Shown: positions 54,396 to 59,883, numbered from the stretch's first letter. The stretch is 64,000 bases of DNA from Candidatus Faecalibacterium intestinigallinarum (GCA_019113345.1 DXHQ01000100.1:8445-72444), one strand, 5' to 3'. Notes: generated by a model from the letters alone, not told the origin. Numbers and translations are program-made.

Positions 54396-55121
54396 TTACT
54401 CTTTGCCACAGTAGACTTCGATGGCCCGCCGGACAAACGCCGCCGTGCCTTCGCCGCCCGCGCAGTCGATGTTCTGCCGGAACCGCTCGTCCTCCGTGTA
54501 CATCTGCCCCAGACCGTTCAGAATCTCTTTGGTGCAGGTGTAGTAGTGTTCGGTGATGAACGCCTGAAGGGCAGCCGCTTTTTCCTGCACCGCCGGCGCA
54601 TCGGGCGCCAGCTGCCGCAGGGCGCCGAACTCGGCCAGCAGTTCCATCAGCTCCCGGCCGCCTTTTGCAAAGTCGGCGCCTGCCGCCTCCTTCCGGGCAC
54701 ATTCCTGCCAGGCTTCGGAGCCGCCCCAGCGGCCTTTGGCCTCTGCTTTGTACTGTTCCATCTCACGGGTGTCAAACGACTTAAAATCCATGATGCTCGC
54801 TCCTTTTTGCTGTAGTGCACGGGCAAAGGCGATCAGGTCCCCGATGTGCCGGCGCTGCATCTCCAGCAGCTGAATCTGCTGTTCCAGCGCCGCCGCAGGG
54901 TCAAAATTCGGGCTGTCCAAAATGGCCTTGATCTCCCTGAGGGGAAACTGCAATTCGCGGAACAGCAAAATATTCTGCAGGCGGCGAAGGGCCGCATCGT
55001 CATACAGCCGGTAGCCGGCATCGGTCACCTTTGCGGGTCTCAAAAGGCCGATGGCGTCATAGTGATGGAGCGTGCGCACGCTCACCCCCGTGATCCTGCT
55101 GACCTGTTTTACCGTCCACAT
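54396..55121 (-). CDS. MerR-family regulator with a TipAS-like C-terminal domain
   Basis: MWTVKQVSRITGVSVRTLHHYDAIGLL is a MerR HTH. It is followed by a coiled-coil linker and then a TipAS-type domain (EAKGRWGGSEAWQE...). Confidence 0.85.
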   Translation of the reverse strand: MWTVKQVSRITGVSVRTLHHYDAIGLLRPAKVTDAGYRLYDDAALRRLQNILLFRELQFPLREIKAILDSPNFDPAAALEQQIQLLEMQRRHIGDLIAFARALQQKGASIMDFKSFDTREMEQYKAEAKGRWGGSEAWQECARKEAAGADFAKGGRELMELLAEFGALRQLAPDAPAVQEKAAALQAFITEHYYTCTKEILNGLGQMYTEDERFRQNIDCAGGEGTAAFVRRAIEVYCGKE

Positions 55122-55144
55122 TTTTATCCCTCCCGTGTGAGGCA

Positions 55145-55175
55145 AGTATACACCATAACGCTGCGTTAGGGTCAA
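55145..55175 (-). promoter_or_regulatory. MerR-type promoter with a 19-bp spacer and internal dyad
   Basis: Minus strand TTGACC-19 nt-TATACT. The dyad TAACGC-T-GCGTTA (55156-55168) is centred in the spacer. Confidence 0.55.
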
Positions 55176-55201
55176 GCGTTTTTGCAATTTTTTTCAAAGC
55201 A

Positions 55202-55236
55202 TAAAAAGGGCGTGCCGCCGGGGCACGCCTTTTTTA
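55202..55236 (-). terminator. intrinsic terminator after nnrD (hairpin with runs on both sides)
   Basis: Stem GGCGTGCC/GGCACGCC with T-runs on both strands. Confidence 0.65.
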
Positions 55237-56121
55237 TCTGTAGTTTTCTGCAAAGATGGCCCCCAGATCGGCGAGGAGGTCGTGGGGGAGCATCCCGTAC
55301 TGGCCGAGGCGGCGGGCGCAGCGGTCGGCGGCCGCGCCGTGCAGCCAGACCGCGCAGGCGGCGGCTTCGGGCGCGGGCAGGCCGCAGGCGGCAAGGCCGG
55401 CGGTCATGCCGGCCAGCACGTCCCCGCTGCCGCCCCGGGCCAGGCCGGCGTTGCCGGTGGTGTTCTGCCACAGCCGGCCGTCGGGGGCGGCGATGAGGGT
55501 GTGGTGGCCTTTGAGCACCACCGTGCAGCCCCACATTTCGGCATACCGGGCGGCCACGCCGGGCCGGTCGGCCGCGATCTCGGCCGGCGCAAGGCCGGTC
55601 AGGCGGGCCATCTCGCCGGGGTGAGGGGTCAGGATCAGCTCAAACCCCGCAGCCGGGCGGGGCAGGGGCTCCCCTGCCGCCAGCATGGCTGCCGCGGCGT
55701 TGAGGGCGTCGGCGTCCAGCACCACCGTGCAGGCGGCTCCCGCCGCAAGGGCGCGGACCAGCGCCCGGGTGTCGGGGGTGTTGCCCATCCCTGGGCCCAT
55801 CAGGAGGACGGTGGCCTTCTGCCGGGCGGCCAGCAGGCTGTCCGCCGCTGCGGCGCCAAGCCCGCCGTCGGGGCCTTCGGGGCAGGGCAGCAGGCAGCAC
55901 TCGGGCAGGCGGGCGGCGGCCGCCGCAATCACCGGCTCGACGGCGGCCAGGGTGACGATCCCCGCGCCGGCGCGCAGCGCCCCCTCGGCGGCAAGGTTCG
56001 CCGCGCCGCGGTAGCGCCGGCTGCCGGCGGCCAGCAGGACATGGCCGTAGCTGCCCTTGTGGCTGTCGGGCTCCCGCGGCCGGATCGAGGCAAAGACAAA
56101 CGATTCATCGAGCCGTTCCAT
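55234..56121 (-). CDS. nnrD: ADP-dependent NAD(P)H-hydrate dehydratase (YjeF C-terminal domain type)
   Basis: HKGSYGHVLLAAGS, TPHPGE and GGSGDVLAG motifs; 295 aa. Confidence 0.9.
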   Translation of the reverse strand: MERLDESFVFASIRPREPDSHKGSYGHVLLAAGSRRYRGAANLAAEGALRAGAGIVTLAAVEPVIAAAAARLPECCLLPCPEGPDGGLGAAAADSLLAARQKATVLLMGPGMGNTPDTRALVRALAAGAACTVVLDADALNAAAAMLAAGEPLPRPAAGFELILTPHPGEMARLTGLAPAEIAADRPGVAARYAEMWGCTVVLKGHHTLIAAPDGRLWQNTTGNAGLARGGSGDVLAGMTAGLAACGLPAPEAAACAVWLHGAAADRCARRLGQYGMLPHDLLADLGAIFAENYR

Positions 56122-56124
56122 GGC

Positions 56125-58707
56125 TTACTCCTCCTGCTGAATATACCGGCGGATCTCCCGCTCGACCTCGTCCACCTCGTCCCGGAACTGCCGGGCCGAG
56201 ACCCGCAGCGCCCCGTGCCCCAGGATGATGATCTGCTCCATCCCGTCCGAGGTAGCCACCCGGACCCGGCGCTCCCGGCCGATCTCGTGGGTGACCCGCT
56301 CGATGTACATATCGGCGGTCTCGGCCTCGCGGGTGTAGACGACGTGGATGTTGTGGTACTGCTCCACCGTGCCGGGGCTGCCCGGCACCCGGTAGGCGTC
56401 GAACACCAGGATCAGCACGCACTGTTTGAAGCCCTGGTAGTTGCAGAGGATGTCCATCAGCTTCTGCCGGGCGGCGGCAAGGCTGTCTTTGGCCAGAGCG
56501 GCAAGGTCCTCCCAGGCAAAGATAATGTTGTAGCCGTCCACCAGCAGGTACTCGGGCAGGACGGCCCACTGCCGGGCATCGAAATCGGGCCGTTCGCTTT
56601 TGACCGGGCGGAAGGCGGCCAGCGGGTCCCGCTTGATGGGGCCGTAGGTCTGCTCAAAAATTTTCATCAGCTCGGCGTCGTTTTCAAGGCTGGCCCGGAA
56701 GGACGCCGCCCGCCGGGCGGGGGCGGTGTCCGCCGCGTCGGGGCGGGCGGGTTTGGCCTTGCCCCAGCCGCTCTCGACGTGCATATGCTCCCGCACCTTG
56801 TTCCAGGGCACGATAAAGCCCGCTCCGTGGGCGCAGAAGACCGAGTCGGGCGAATTGTCGAGGTCGGCCTCGGGGTCGTAGCCGGCGGCGGCCACGATCT
56901 CGGCGGCGTTGCGGCAGGGGCGGTAGCTGTCGGGGGTGAGGGTGATCTTCCCCCGGCCGTGGGTGTAGCCGGCCAGCTGACGGGGATAGCCCCGCAGCCC
57001 GCTGACCGGGGCCGAGCCTTCGAGGATGGCGGTCTCCCCTTCCTGCCCGGCGGGGCCGAAGGAGCCGCCCAGCTGCTGGATATCGTTCATGGCCCGGCCG
57101 AGGCTGGCTGCCGGCAGCTCGAGGCGGAAGTGATACCAGGGTTCGAGCAGGACGCTCTTGGTCATCATCAGGCCCTGCCGCACCGCGCGGAGGGCCGCCT
57201 GCCGGAAGTCGCCGCCCTCGGTGTGCTTGAGGTGCGCGCGGCCGGCGATGAGGGTGATCTTGACGTCGGTGAGGGGGGCGCCGGTCAGGACGCCCCGGTG
57301 CTCCTTCTCTTCCAGGTTGGAGAGGACCAGCCGCTGCCAGTTGCGGGCCAGCACCTCTTCGCGGCAGTCGGTGTCGTACTGGAGGCCGCTGCCGGGGGGC
57401 AGGGGCTCCAGTTTCAGGTGTACCTCGGCGTAGTGGCGGAGCGGTTCGTAGTGGCCCACCCCTTCCACCGGCTCGGCGATGGTCTCCTTATAGAGAATGC
57501 CGCCCTCGCCGAAGGATACTTCCAGCCCGAACCGGCGGGCCAGCAGGCTTTGCAGCACCTCCAGCTGGATCTCGCCCATCAAGCGGATGTGGATCTGGTT
57601 CAGCTGCTCGTCCCAGACGACGTGCAGCTCGGGCACCTCCTCCTCGATGCGGCGGAGGCTGGCCAGGGCGGCGTGGACGTCCGCCCCCTCGGGCAGCAGG
57701 ACCTGGTAGGTCAGCACCGGCTCGAGCAGCGGGTCGCCGGCGTCCCGCTCGGCCCCGAGGCCCTCGCCCGGCTTTGCGCCGGCAAGCCCCGTCACGGCGC
57801 AGACCTGGCCGGGGTACACCTCGTTTGCCAGGGTGTATTTGGCCCCCGAGTAGAGCCGCAGCTGGTCGGCCTTGCCGGACCAGCCCTCCCCTTCCGGGCC
57901 GCCGGCGAGGGTGTCCTTGACTTTCAGGACGCCGCCGGTCACCCGCAGCCAGGTCAGGCGGGCTCCCTGCTCGTCCTGCGAGACCTTAAAGACCCGCGCG
58001 CCGAAGTGCTCCCCGGCGGGGGCGGGGCGGGTCCAGCGGGCGAGGCCGGACAGCAGGGCGTCCACCCCTTCCAGCTTGAGGGCCGAGCCGAACCAGCAGG
58101 GGAAAACGTGCCGCCGGGCAATGGCGGTGACGATATCCCCGTCGGGCAGCGCTTCGCCCGCGAGGTAGGCGTCCATCAGCCGCTCGTCGCAGAGGGCCAG
58201 CGCCTCGTCCCGGGCGGCAGAGTCCGCCCCGAAATCCACAAAACCGTCGCCGAGGCGGCGGCGCAGCTGTTCCAGGATGGCCTCCCGCCCCGGCCCGGGC
58301 AGGTCCATCTTGTTGATAAAGAGAAAGGTGGGCACCCGGCAGCGGCGCAGCAGGGCCCACAGGGTCTCGGTGTGGCTCTGCACCCCGTCGGGCCCGCTGA
58401 TGACCAGCACCGCATAGTCCAGCACCTGGACCGTCCGCTCGGCCTCGGCCGAAAAGTCGACATGGCCGGGGGTGTCCAGCCAGGCGACCTGCGCGCCGTC
58501 CAGGCTGAACAGCGCCTGTTTGGCAAAAATGGTGATGCCCCGCGCCCGCTCCAGGCTGTCGGTATCGAGAAAGGCGTCCCGGTGGTCCACCCTGCCCAGT
58601 TTGCGGATGGCTCCGGCGCGGTAGAGCACCGCCTCCGAGAGGGTGGTCTTGCCCGAGTCGACGTGGGCCAGCACCCCCACCACCAGGCGTTTTGTCTTGT
58701 CTGCCAT
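56125..58707 (-). CDS. fusion protein: TetM/EF-G-like translational GTPase (aa 1 to about 640) + linker + YacP/Rae1-type NYN ribonuclease domain (aa 719-860)
   Basis: G motifs AHVDSGKT, RGITI, DTPGH and NKMD, with TetM-like similarity through domains II-V. The C-terminal 142 aa (DNA 56128-56553) read EYLLVDGYN...VFDAY...REAETADMYIE...VATSDGMEQ...GALRVSARQF, matching B. subtilis YacP/Rae1 as recalled. The ORF is a single uninterrupted frame. Confidence 0.85.
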   Translation of the reverse strand: MADKTKRLVVGVLAHVDSGKTTLSEAVLYRAGAIRKLGRVDHRDAFLDTDSLERARGITIFAKQALFSLDGAQVAWLDTPGHVDFSAEAERTVQVLDYAVLVISGPDGVQSHTETLWALLRRCRVPTFLFINKMDLPGPGREAILEQLRRRLGDGFVDFGADSAARDEALALCDERLMDAYLAGEALPDGDIVTAIARRHVFPCWFGSALKLEGVDALLSGLARWTRPAPAGEHFGARVFKVSQDEQGARLTWLRVTGGVLKVKDTLAGGPEGEGWSGKADQLRLYSGAKYTLANEVYPGQVCAVTGLAGAKPGEGLGAERDAGDPLLEPVLTYQVLLPEGADVHAALASLRRIEEEVPELHVVWDEQLNQIHIRLMGEIQLEVLQSLLARRFGLEVSFGEGGILYKETIAEPVEGVGHYEPLRHYAEVHLKLEPLPPGSGLQYDTDCREEVLARNWQRLVLSNLEEKEHRGVLTGAPLTDVKITLIAGRAHLKHTEGGDFRQAALRAVRQGLMMTKSVLLEPWYHFRLELPAASLGRAMNDIQQLGGSFGPAGQEGETAILEGSAPVSGLRGYPRQLAGYTHGRGKITLTPDSYRPCRNAAEIVAAAGYDPEADLDNSPDSVFCAHGAGFIVPWNKVREHMHVESGWGKAKPARPDAADTAPARRAASFRASLENDAELMKIFEQTYGPIKRDPLAAFRPVKSERPDFDARQWAVLPEYLLVDGYNIIFAWEDLAALAKDSLAAARQKLMDILCNYQGFKQCVLILVFDAYRVPGSPGTVEQYHNIHVVYTREAETADMYIERVTHEIGRERRVRVATSDGMEQIIILGHGALRVSARQFRDEVDEVEREIRRYIQQEE

Positions 58708-58717
58708 GGCCGCCCCC

Positions 58718-59143
58718 TTACAGGATACTGGCCGCGATGCCGATGGCCGTCATGGGCAATCCCACGATCAGGCTGGACAGCATACTGCACAGGGCCTTTT
58801 CCTCGGCGCTGAGCTCGTCGAAGGAGACGATCTTTTCATCCGCGAAATCGGCCATCGAGTGGGTGGCGTGGCGCTTGCGGGCGCCGCGCTCTTCGGACAG
58901 GCCCTTCTGCCTGTCCACAAAGGGGATGCGGATGCCGTCCAGACGCAGGTAGGCCACCCACGCCCAGCCCAGCAGAGCCGCCCCCACCGCAAAGCAGGGG
59001 GCTTCCCAGATGGTAAAGCGCCCGTCGCTGACAAAGCGCTGCCACAAAAGGCAGAGGCAGGCCGCCACCGCCAGCCGCCGCACCGTCTTGTACAGCAGGG
59101 CGCGGAACATATCGGGTTTGTAAATGGAACGCAGTTTTTTCAT
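58718..59143 (-). CDS. hypothetical small membrane protein (about 3 TM helices)
   Basis: 141 aa with an AAGGAG RBS 5 nt upstream of the ATG. Hydrophobic segments: LAVAACLCLLW, CFAVGAALLGWAWVAYL and LCSMLSSLIVGLPMTAIGIAASIL. Its stop lies 10 nt upstream of the GTPase-NYN start. Confidence 0.7.
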   Translation of the reverse strand: MKKLRSIYKPDMFRALLYKTVRRLAVAACLCLLWQRFVSDGRFTIWEAPCFAVGAALLGWAWVAYLRLDGIRIPFVDRQKGLSEERGARKRHATHSMADFADEKIVSFDELSAEEKALCSMLSSLIVGLPMTAIGIAASIL

Positions 59144-59169
59144 GGGTACTCCTTTAGCCCTTTTCGTCG

Positions 59170-59345
59170 CGCTGCCCCCTCAGTCGTGCTCCGCAGGCCA
59201 GTTCCTCTTGCGCTTAGCCGGTTTTTGCAGCGCGGGTCGCCTTCGCGGCTTCGTCCGCCGGACGTGCCCGGCGACGCGGCCCCCTCAGCCGCCTTTGGCG
59301 GCAGCCCCCCCGCACGCGTGGGGGCTTCAGCGGTATGGATTTTGA
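59170..59345 (+). repeat. left arm of a ~400-bp imperfect giant inverted repeat
   Basis: Shares these modules with the reverse complement of 59372-59568: GCTGCCCCCTCAGTC, CTCTTGCGCTTAGCCGGTTTTTGCAGCG, CTTCGTCCGCCGGACG, CCCCGCACGCGTGGG and ATGGATTT. Confidence 0.75.
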
Positions 59346-59371
59346 AAAAGCAACCTGAAAGTTTCATTTCC

Positions 59372-59568
59372 AAATCCATTCCTTATTGCCTCCCACGCGT
59401 GCGGGGCACGAACAGCGACCGCGTCCAGCGGACGAAACAGGGAGCTGTGAGTGGCGCAGCGCTCCGATTTTTGCAAGGGCATTCATGCCCGCTGCAAAAA
59501 ACGGCTAAGCGCAAGAGGGGCTGTCAGCGCAGCTGACTGAGGGGGGCGGCGAGACTGAGAGGGCAGCA
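59372..59568 (-). repeat. right arm of the giant inverted repeat (a diverged copy in inverse orientation)
   Basis: Carries the same ordered modules on the opposite strand, with arm-specific insertions. Confidence 0.75.
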
Positions 59569-59576
59569 TTTTTAGT

Positions 59577-59585
59577 ATTCTACCA
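59577..59585 (-). promoter_or_regulatory. candidate extended -10 promoter reading into the palindrome and the membrane-protein/GTPase-NYN operon
   Basis: Minus strand TGGTAGAAT (TGn + TAGAAT) with a poor -35 (TATCTT). Sits at the outer edge of the right arm. Confidence 0.35.
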
Positions 59586-59774
59586 CGTTTTCCCGCAAAA
59601 AGATAGCCGCCGTTTGCCCGCGTCCGCATATGGCGTACAGATGGCGCGCCGGTACACACGCAAGTTTTGCTTCTTTTGCAGCCGCAAGATGAAAGTTCTT
59701 CAACTTTTCACTCTTTTTTCACCGTTTTTCGGCCTCCGGCGGCAATTATGGGCACAAGTTGGAGGGCGGCTTTC

Positions 59775-59803
59775 TTGACATCTGTACTTTATGATGGTAA
59801 AAT
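59775..59803 (+). promoter_or_regulatory. sigma-70-type promoter upstream of the ABC transporter operon
   Basis: TTGACA-17 nt-TAAAAT. Confidence 0.55.
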
Positions 59804-59841
59804 ACACGTGTGTTAAGGATTCTGCGGCGGGGCCCGGGCGT

Positions 59842-59883
59842 GCCCAAATACAGACGCTGAGGTCTGTATTTGGGCCTTTTTGT
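59842..59883 (+). terminator. intrinsic terminator inside the ABC-operon leader (attenuator, or the end of a short RNA)
   Basis: Perfect 14-bp stem GCCCAAATACAGAC/GTCTGTATTTGGGC, 6-nt loop, then CTTTTTGT. Confidence 0.65.

Follow-up and report, generated by a model that had tools for sequence, protein, structure and literature searches.

A Rae1-type nuclease tethered to an EF-G/TetM-like GTPase in gut Clostridia: a candidate factor of ribosome surveillance

The gene considered here lies in Candidatus Faecalibacterium intestinigallinarum (GCA_019113345.1, DXHQ01000100.1:8445-72444), on a stretch of 64,000 nucleotides (nt) that was analysed whole (the window; positions are counted from its first letter), and encodes an EF-G/Tet-like translational GTPase, a tether and a NYN_YacP nuclease in one polypeptide. 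Its open reading frame (ORF) occupies 56125..58707 on the minus strand, starts with ATG, ends in a stop codon at 56125-56127 and runs without a break through 860 amino acids (aa), as the initial annotation of this DNA had proposed. Pfam matches six domains on the 860-aa protein: GTP_EFTU, EFG_III, EFG_IV, EFG_C and NYN_YacP, all anticipated in that annotation, together with a weak EF-G_D2 below its gathering score; the architecture claimed at the outset, with an intact GTPase, is borne out, and the motifs quoted for it are found in their places. GTP_EFTU, EFG_IV, EFG_C and NYN_YacP are matched in all 55 divergent family members of a diverse alignment. An assembly join or a frameshift is ruled out and the gene is not an assembly artefact, because the identical protein is present in 92 assembly blocks of the indexed assemblies and the architecture is unbroken in 80 of 80 related loci, with orthologues intact in 80 species; gene order is the same in all six places read among the 92 blocks, and the guanine-plus-cytosine content has no discontinuity at the locus. 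The AlphaFold2 (AF2) model is confident (predicted local distance difference test, pLDDT, 86.6), with an EF-G/TetM-type body, an ordered segment at 601-645, a disordered one at 654-716 and a well-folded NYN domain; when the whole model was submitted to Foldseek, the best matches were ribosome-bound EF-G structures (EF-G E 4e-54), and TetM was also returned with probability 1.00. The gene is real and intact; its product links an EF-G/TetM-like GTPase to a Rae1-type domain by a tether that is long and flexible.

The GTPase body extends over residues 8-600, with all its domains on the minus strand. The G domain (58033..58686, residues 8-225, Pfam GTP_EFTU E 1e-44) carries G1 AHVDSGKT at 14-21, G2 RGITI at 56-60, G3 DTPGH at 78-82 and G4 NKMD at 132-135; D17, G19, K20, D78-H82, N132, K133 and D135 are invariant in the 55 family members, and so is the catalytic residue after DxxG, His82. 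It is followed by domain II (57778..58002, residues 236-310, Pfam EF-G_D2 E 1.7e-4, the match that stays below the gathering score), which is matched in 43 of the 55 members and modelled as a beta-barrel with pLDDT >90, and then by domain III (57508..57723, residues 329-400, EFG_III E 1e-7), domain IV (57163..57498, residues 404-515, EFG_IV E 1e-18) and domain V (56908..57153, residues 519-600, EFG_C E 9e-16). With G1-G4, a His after DxxG and domains II-V, the protein belongs to the EF-G/EF2 clade of the translational GTPase superfamily. The tip of domain IV sets the family apart. Alignments against TetM, TetO and EF-G reveal family-specific tip loops, GHYEPLRHYAEV at 418-429 and GRAHLKHTEGGDF at 489-501, and from the same alignments both the Tet YSPVS and the EF-G GGRGQ are absent. 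Loop I is nearly invariant as GHxEPLRHYAEV, with G418, H419, H425 and E428 unchanged in all 55 members, and the second loop is conserved within the family as GRAHxKHTEGGDF, with H492, K494, H495, T496, G499, D500 and F501 each at least 90% conserved. Judged by its sequence, the domain IV tip has a conserved, His/Lys/Glu-rich chemistry of its own.

Beyond the body, the initial annotation had placed a linker of ~75 aa. A tether of ~73 aa is present there, but the region after the body falls into two parts, an ordered one at 601-645 and a disordered one at 646-718. The first (56773..56907, minus strand) continues the GTPase body at its C-terminal end as a structured extension (AF2 block-mean pLDDT 83-93), folded in the model as a helix (601-608) and a beta-hairpin (622-633), and carries the motif Y610-D-P..D615......S622-x-F-C-x-x-G628.......W635, of which S622, F624 and G628 are invariant in the family alignment and Y610, D615, C625 and W635 at least 90% conserved. 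In the alignment it stands roughly where TetM has its C-terminal extension. The second part, the flexible tether (56554..56772, minus strand, residues 646-718), is variable and of low complexity, with AF2 pLDDT <50 at 654-677 and 692-716; between these, at ~676-690, a short conserved motif, D-x-E-L-x-x-I-F-x-x-T-Y-G, is shared by 47 of 61 sequences. Tether length ranges from 72 to 201 aa (median 97) in 56 members, none being shorter. A tether that never measures less than 72 aa suggests that the NYN domain likely acts at some distance from the decoding centre.

The NYN_YacP endoribonuclease domain itself (56128..56553, minus strand, residues 719-860) matches Pfam PF05991 over residues 721-859 (E 2e-49; 168.2 bits against a gathering score of 24.6), covering profile positions 1-141 of 166 and leaving 142-166 unmatched. 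Its motifs are LLVDGYN (721-727), VFDAY (768-772), ETAD (796-799) and ATSD (818-821). It aligns to residues 3-140 of the Bacillus subtilis YacP/Rae1 crystal structure (5mq8/5mq9) with E 5e-25 and two single-residue gaps, with 41% identity to the same Rae1 residues by tblastn, and sets D724, D770, D799 and D821 opposite Rae1 D7, D53, D81 and D104; the profile match and this alignment confirm the 142-aa YacP/Rae1-like domain with four acidic positions that had been described from the sequence. The four catalytic Asp residues are invariant in 55 members, where the mean column identity is 43%, and D7N D81N is a published catalytic-dead allele of Rae1 (PMC10351889). Since the NYN domain ends where the Rae1 core ends, the Rae1 C-terminal tail (~30 aa) is missing from the window protein; about half of the fusion family retains a tail of 13-40 aa after the core. 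Retained tails often carry the motif (R/Q)NYL-x-(E/D)-x-(L/M) (e.g., P0153, P0175, P0155 and P0237). P0237 is a protein of 177 aa that starts three residues before LLVDGYN and is 65% identical to the NYN domain of the fusion; on these sequence features it could be a Clostridial Rae1 that truly stands alone, very near the fused domains.

Where such a nuclease might cut, once tied to such a body, is best considered against what has been reported for Rae1, a translation-dependent mRNA endonuclease. The initial annotation treated cleavage by Rae1 within the ribosomal A site as established; the authors of that claim withdrew it in 2025. In a 2026 preprint (PMC13622287), Rae1 acts on collided ribosomes and feeds trans-translation: tagging by transfer-messenger RNA (tmRNA) depends on it there, also when erythromycin induces the collisions. 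A literal A-site delivery, in which a GTP-gated NYN domain would enter the A site and cut the A-site codon in the style of RelE, draws on the original 2017 model, in which, as later recounted, Rae1 could be docked into the A site, and on the fusion itself, which ties a Rae1 domain to an A-site-directed factor. A tether of always at least 72 aa would be needless for a site adjoining domain IV. Moreover, the body has a Foldseek-confirmed EF-G/TetM fold, and in TetM (3J9Y) and EF-G complexes domain IV is already there and fills the A site; for this steric reason the NYN domain is unlikely to be delivered to it, and we regard the A-site model as very improbable. A second possibility is that the nuclease targets ribosomal RNA (rRNA; 16S/23S) or A/P-site transfer RNA (tRNA) on defective, idle or immature ribosomes, where the GTPase would dock it, serving their turnover, inactivation or maturation. 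To judge from the C-terminal extension of TetM, the tether should originate close to the decoding centre, and the loops of domain IV are conserved and specific to the family, both of which would suit such a role. YacP was, in addition, originally predicted to take part in rRNA/tRNA processing from its mrnC-rlmB neighbourhood; the fusion, however, does not lie in an mrnC-rlmB context, and its long disordered tether speaks against a precisely positioned rRNA cut, so that we consider an rRNA or tRNA target unlikely.

How widespread is this architecture? TetM-like/NYN_YacP fusions in Clostridia were recorded in ten species, as architecture only, by Atkinson 2015 (PMC4342817), and were described again in Matelska 2017 (PMC5499597). 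The fusion architecture is thus already known, and the novelty implied by the initial annotation does not hold, whereas its remark that no characterised example was known does: full-text literature searches found no functional study of a TetM-like/NYN_YacP fusion, and recent Rae1 papers do not mention it. The present analysis shows the family to be much larger than those ten species, sets out its taxonomic spread and its lack of a conserved partner, and describes its specific domain IV loops, its C-terminal extension and the limit on how short the tether can be. It also brings out that a body which occupies the A site is at odds with the old A-site model of Rae1, and points to a probable RefSeq mis-annotation. 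A search with residues 601-860 against 1.84 billion cluster representatives at 50% identity gave 3184 matches with E<1e-3, 527 of them with E<1e-30, and at least 60 of the best 150 representatives are full-length fusions of 820-1156 aa in which the match falls at ~600-860 with 40-57% identity. In a genome scan of pattern-matched stretches from one genome per GTDB species, at least 598 stretches encode a relative (598 of the 600 matches listed); the share of fusions was counted for the best 80 loci only, the set on which the neighbourhood counts below also rest, and all 80 hold a full-length, unbroken fusion. The genera concerned include Faecalibacterium, Gemmiger, Oscillibacter, Dysosmobacter, Flavonifractor, Intestinimonas, Anaerotruncus, Ruminococcus, Monoglobus, Ruminiclostridium, Blautia, Dorea and Herbinix, among others. 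Identity to the window protein falls with taxonomic distance, from 75-77% in Faecalibacterium to ~54-58% in Oscillospiraceae and ~49-55% in Lachnospiraceae, which suggests mainly vertical inheritance.

Mobile carriage, by contrast with this chromosomal spread, leaves few traces. Plasmid records give full coverage of the protein in two cases only, NZ_CP143948.1 (252 kb) and NZ_OY725736.1 (518 kb), and since both of these PLSDB plasmid-labelled records are large and non-mobilizable and carry housekeeping genes (secA, map for methionyl aminopeptidase, ssb, gatB/yqeY, cotJ), they are probably chromosomal pieces. The accessions adjoining NZ_OY725736.1, namely NZ_OY725735.1 and NZ_OY725737.1, measure 1030 and 589 bp. 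In phage collections, relatives occur only in two unannotated human-faecal 'Bacteriophage sp.' contigs, MT835563.1 (7224-7964) and MT835514.1 (17037-17747), and in one 4-kb IMG/VR contig (L088), with identities of 74%, 43% and 77%, respectively; these are likely bacterial DNA in viral bins. Carriage by a mobile element, plasmid or phage was dropped as an explanation, its only instances being the mislabelled chromosomal 'plasmids', the two faecal contigs and the IMG/VR contig. A Clostridia-type fusion of 55% identity also turned up on a 6.7-kb contig of a Bacteroidota-labelled 'Alloprevotella sp.' bin (L063, CAVEPP010000094.1), which probably reflects binning contamination rather than transfer.

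These data bear directly on the idea, suggested by Atkinson 2015 (PMC4342817) in placing the fusions within the Tet subfamily, that the protein provides Tet-type ribosomal protection against tetracyclines or another drug of the A site or GTPase centre, with the RNase as a second resistance activity. The best NCBIfam match of the fusion is tet_protect, and its body is colinear with TetO and TetM; yet the score stays far below the cut-off (378.6 against 775), as do those for Otr(A) (306.9/900), tet_protect_M_W (244/1100) and Tet(Q) (215.7/1425), identity to TetM and TetO is 28%, and the tetracycline-dislodging loop III, GLYYSPVSTPADF, is replaced by the family-conserved GRAHxKHTEGGDF. The TetM/TetO resemblance noted initially therefore stands as far as the colinear body goes, and fails on identity, on score (379 versus 775 bits) and on the absent YSPVS. 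A MerR/TipAS regulator of an antibiotic-sensing type adjoins the unit in this species, and Rae1 has itself been linked to antibiotic responses, through bmrCD and erythromycin-induced collisions; against this, the MerR neighbour is not conserved over the 80 loci, and the mobile elements and patchy horizontal transfer that mark Tet proteins are not seen here, the fusion having a chromosomal housekeeping context, an identity that tracks taxonomy and no occurrence found on mobilisable plasmids. On the sequence evidence, the fusion GTPase is not a genuine tetracycline-protection protein, and antibiotic protection as the function of the family seems distinctly unlikely to us. A further pointer in its favour is a database name. 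The Agathobacter rectalis DFI.5.28 member WP_306784676.1 (933 aa; NZ_CP143948.1 24767-27568, L089 4096-6897) is called a 'TetM/TetW/TetO/TetS family tetracycline resistance ribosomal protection protein' in RefSeq, and it has GHFEPLRHYAE, HVKHTEGGDF, SVFCAHG and the four NYN Asp motifs, and lacks YSPVS. The Monoglobus orthologue, likewise without YSPVS, is named 'translation factor GTPase family protein'. From these motifs the Tet label on WP_306784676.1 is probably a mis-annotation, and as a Tet-labelled member lacks the Tet-defining loop and scores far below the curated cut-offs, resistome surveys of gut Clostridia may over-count tetracycline resistance genes.

Turning to the surroundings of the gene, the window holds a tight three-gene unit on the minus strand. 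Upstream, 10 nt before the ATG of the fusion, lies a predicted membrane protein of 141 aa (tm141, 58718..59143) with three hydrophobic segments (15-33, 48-68 and 116-141) and a charged middle region, for which Pfam, NCBIfam and PADLOC returned no match; downstream, 3 nt after its stop, lies nnrD (55234..56121), an NAD(P)HX dehydratase of 295 aa identified by PF01256 (E 2e-55) and TIGR00196 (229 bits against a cut-off of 130). Both gaps agree with those first reported. A bidirectional hairpin resembling an intrinsic terminator (55201..55237, either strand) closes the unit, and past it, directly downstream, stands the MerR/TipAS-type regulator, of the thiopeptide-sensing type (54396-55187, minus strand). 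Gene order in the species is pgk-tpi-gpmI, a divergent opp transporter, tm141-fusion-nnrD, MerR/TipAS and SIR2. The operon context that had been claimed holds as tight spacing in the window and does not hold as a family feature: a tm141 homologue (51% identity) occurs in one of the 80 related loci (L009), and nnrD and SIR2 neighbours are confined to the three closest Faecalibacterium loci (nnrD in 3/80). A functional operon with tm141 and nnrD was dropped as a family feature, such neighbours being found only in those closest relatives. MerR/TipAS adjacency is seen in this species only, with a weak MerR match after the fusion in one Blautia locus (L046), and helix-turn-helix neighbours are mentioned for some fusions by Matelska 2017 (PMC5499597). 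The largest neighbour cluster, histidine kinases in 11 of 80 loci, is scattered in position and does not rise beyond background.

This coupling of a nuclease and an NTPase to a small membrane protein would suit a toxin or abortive-infection effector, shutting off translation upon phage attack or stress, with the membrane protein as sensor or immunity partner; the few unannotated faecal 'Bacteriophage sp.' contigs with family members could be cited to the same end. PADLOC-DB, however, yields 0 defence families for either the fusion or tm141, the membrane protein is missing from 79 of 80 related loci and leaves the nuclease with no conserved partner, the neighbourhood is a chromosomal housekeeping one, and relatives are essentially absent from genuine plasmids and phages (a single 4-kb contig in IMG/VR). 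With identity tracking taxonomy across Clostridia, suggesting mainly vertical inheritance, the abortive-infection role put forward initially finds no support, and we consider it extremely improbable.

Two further features accompany the unit. An imperfect hairpin leader of ~400 nt (59160..59557, minus strand), with nested inverted repeats, lies 5' of tm141 between an extended -10-like TGgTAGAAT (~59578-59590, located by eye) and the ribosome-binding site of tm141. The palindromic leader of about that length described earlier is real: it forms one long hairpin with a minimum free energy of -237.6 kcal/mol (z = -10.5 against shuffles). It is kept within the species only (97.8-100%, L001-L006) and is not present in related genera; it has no Rfam family, and its arms have no second copy in the window. 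As a regulatory RNA of the family it was dropped, owing to this conservation within the species only and the lack of an Rfam family; it may be a regulatory leader or an insertion resembling a miniature inverted-repeat transposable element. On the plus strand, at 59775-59875, a perfect 14-bp hairpin with a T-run (59842-59875) comes after a near-consensus promoter-like TTGACA-17-TAAAAT with a TG, both upstream of the divergent gene for an oligopeptide-binding protein (start 59976). Together they could serve the opp operon as an attenuator-type leader.

Considering the architecture as a whole, we tentatively propose, and put the chance of it a little short of even, that the fusion is a ribosome-surveillance factor: a sensor of stalled ribosomes that tethers a Rae1-type endonuclease beside the A site and feeds tmRNA rescue. 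In the sequence of events that we envisage, the GTP form of the EF-G/Tet-like body would dock at the factor-binding site of the ribosome with domain IV in or at the A site, and would thereby recognise a ribosome that is not progressing, whether its A site is empty or blocked by a drug or it is collided and stuck before translocation. While the body is bound, the NYN domain, on its tether of at least 72 residues, would cut the mRNA outside the A site, most plausibly on the side where the mRNA enters the bound ribosome. GTP hydrolysis would then release the factor, limiting its residence time, and the truncated mRNA would pass to trans-translation (tmRNA/SmpB) and ribosome recycling. The conserved catalytic residues of both enzymes, the modelled body with its ordered extension and long disordered tether, the generation of tmRNA substrates by Rae1 on collided ribosomes and a chromosomal distribution that tracks taxonomy favour this proposal, and the housekeeping context (pgk-tpi-gpmI, opp) is in line with a core role in translation quality control. 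A more specific version of it, which we consider possible though on balance doubtful, is that the fusion is a self-contained, GTP-timed sensor of collisions or stalls that brings its own nuclease, the body binding a non-progressing ribosome, possibly the trailing collided one, and the nuclease cutting the mRNA at the disome interface.

Several points weigh against a surveillance factor of this kind. Ribosome binding, the mRNA substrate, the position of the cut and the coupling to tmRNA are steps that we infer. In the AF2 model neither the NYN domain nor the tether is docked on the body with confidence, and for this reason the reasoning on geometry draws on what is generally known of TetM and EF-G complexes. 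Tet proteins engage ribosomes that are non-rotated and have an empty A site, whereas the trailing ribosome of a collision is rotated and has yet to translocate; given this mismatch, a body colinear with Tet proteins may recognise either state. The conserved His/Lys-rich loops of domain IV could carry chemistry of their own. Neither a stand-alone Rae1 nor a second yacP was found in the window or in the flanks of up to 8 kb on each side of 90 loci, and all-vs-all clustering of ±4 genes around the 80 loci detected no recurrent partner such as smpB or ssrA.

The fusion nonetheless merits attention, for it is encoded by many abundant gut commensals of humans and animals, and its architecture is documented with no functional study found in the literature. 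It comes into view at a timely moment, with Rae1 recast as a collision-rescue nuclease in 2025-2026. A natural fusion of Rae1 to a GTPase that occupies the A site offers an independent argument that Rae1 works beside, not inside, that site, and the fusion provides cryo-EM and genetics with a tractable handle on how stall sensing is coupled to mRNA cleavage in Gram-positive bacteria. Should the GTP-timed sensor prove true, it would be widespread in the dominant gut Clostridia (e.g., Faecalibacterium, Agathobacter, Blautia, Dorea and Gemmiger), would be the first single polypeptide to combine stall recognition by a translational GTPase with mRNA cleavage of the No-Go type, and would amount to a natural cross-link that shows the work site of Rae1 relative to the factor-binding site.

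Finally, the fusion can be set against the systems it most resembles. The published TetM-like/NYN_YacP fusions of Clostridia have the same architecture, nothing structural differs, and the window protein is a member of that group. B. subtilis Rae1 (YacP) likewise has the NYN_YacP fold, with acidic residues at the same four positions; its chemistry is presumably the same and the kind of substrate, mRNA on stalled ribosomes, probably so. Rae1, however, is a stand-alone protein of 170 aa with a C-terminal tail, in an mrnC-rlmB(yacO)-yacP cluster, whereas here the domain forms the C-terminus of an 860-aa GTPase, has no such tail and keeps other company (tm141, nnrD, opp and pgk-tpi-gpmI). EF-G has the same fold and the same G motifs, and a His in the second domain IV loop of the fusion aligns with Thermus thermophilus EF-G H573; the GGRGQ of EF-G loop I, by contrast, is replaced by GHYEPLRHYAEV with a deletion of four residues, the large EF-G G' insertion is missing, as seen from the EF-G alignment splitting into two stretches, and the EF-G model TIGR00484 scores 270.8 bits against a cut-off of 659.4. 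TetM and TetO (Protein Data Bank entries 3j9y and 4v6v) are closer in outline, their residues 4-613 aligning with residues 8-598 of the fusion in one colinear stretch, also without the large G' insertion. Identity nevertheless amounts to only 28% against the verified TetM and TetO sequences; their loop III, GLYYSPVSTPADF, carries YSPVS where the fusion has GRAHLKHTEGGDF, and the fusion adds a structured extension, a tether and a nuclease and is chromosomal rather than borne on mobile elements.

More distant are SmrB of Escherichia coli and Cue2 of yeast, which are analogous in function only, as nucleases recruited to stalled or collided ribosomes to generate a substrate for rescue. Dom34-Hbs1 (Pelota), in which a translational GTPase escorts an A-site probe to stalled ribosomes, likewise offers a functional analogy and no more. 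The folds of all three are unrelated (an SMR domain; eRF1-like), and in none of them do GTPase and nuclease form one polypeptide. Taken against this background, the fusion would work most like a Rae1 with a delivery module of its own, and stands outside both the Tet ribosomal protection proteins and the EF-G equivalogs.

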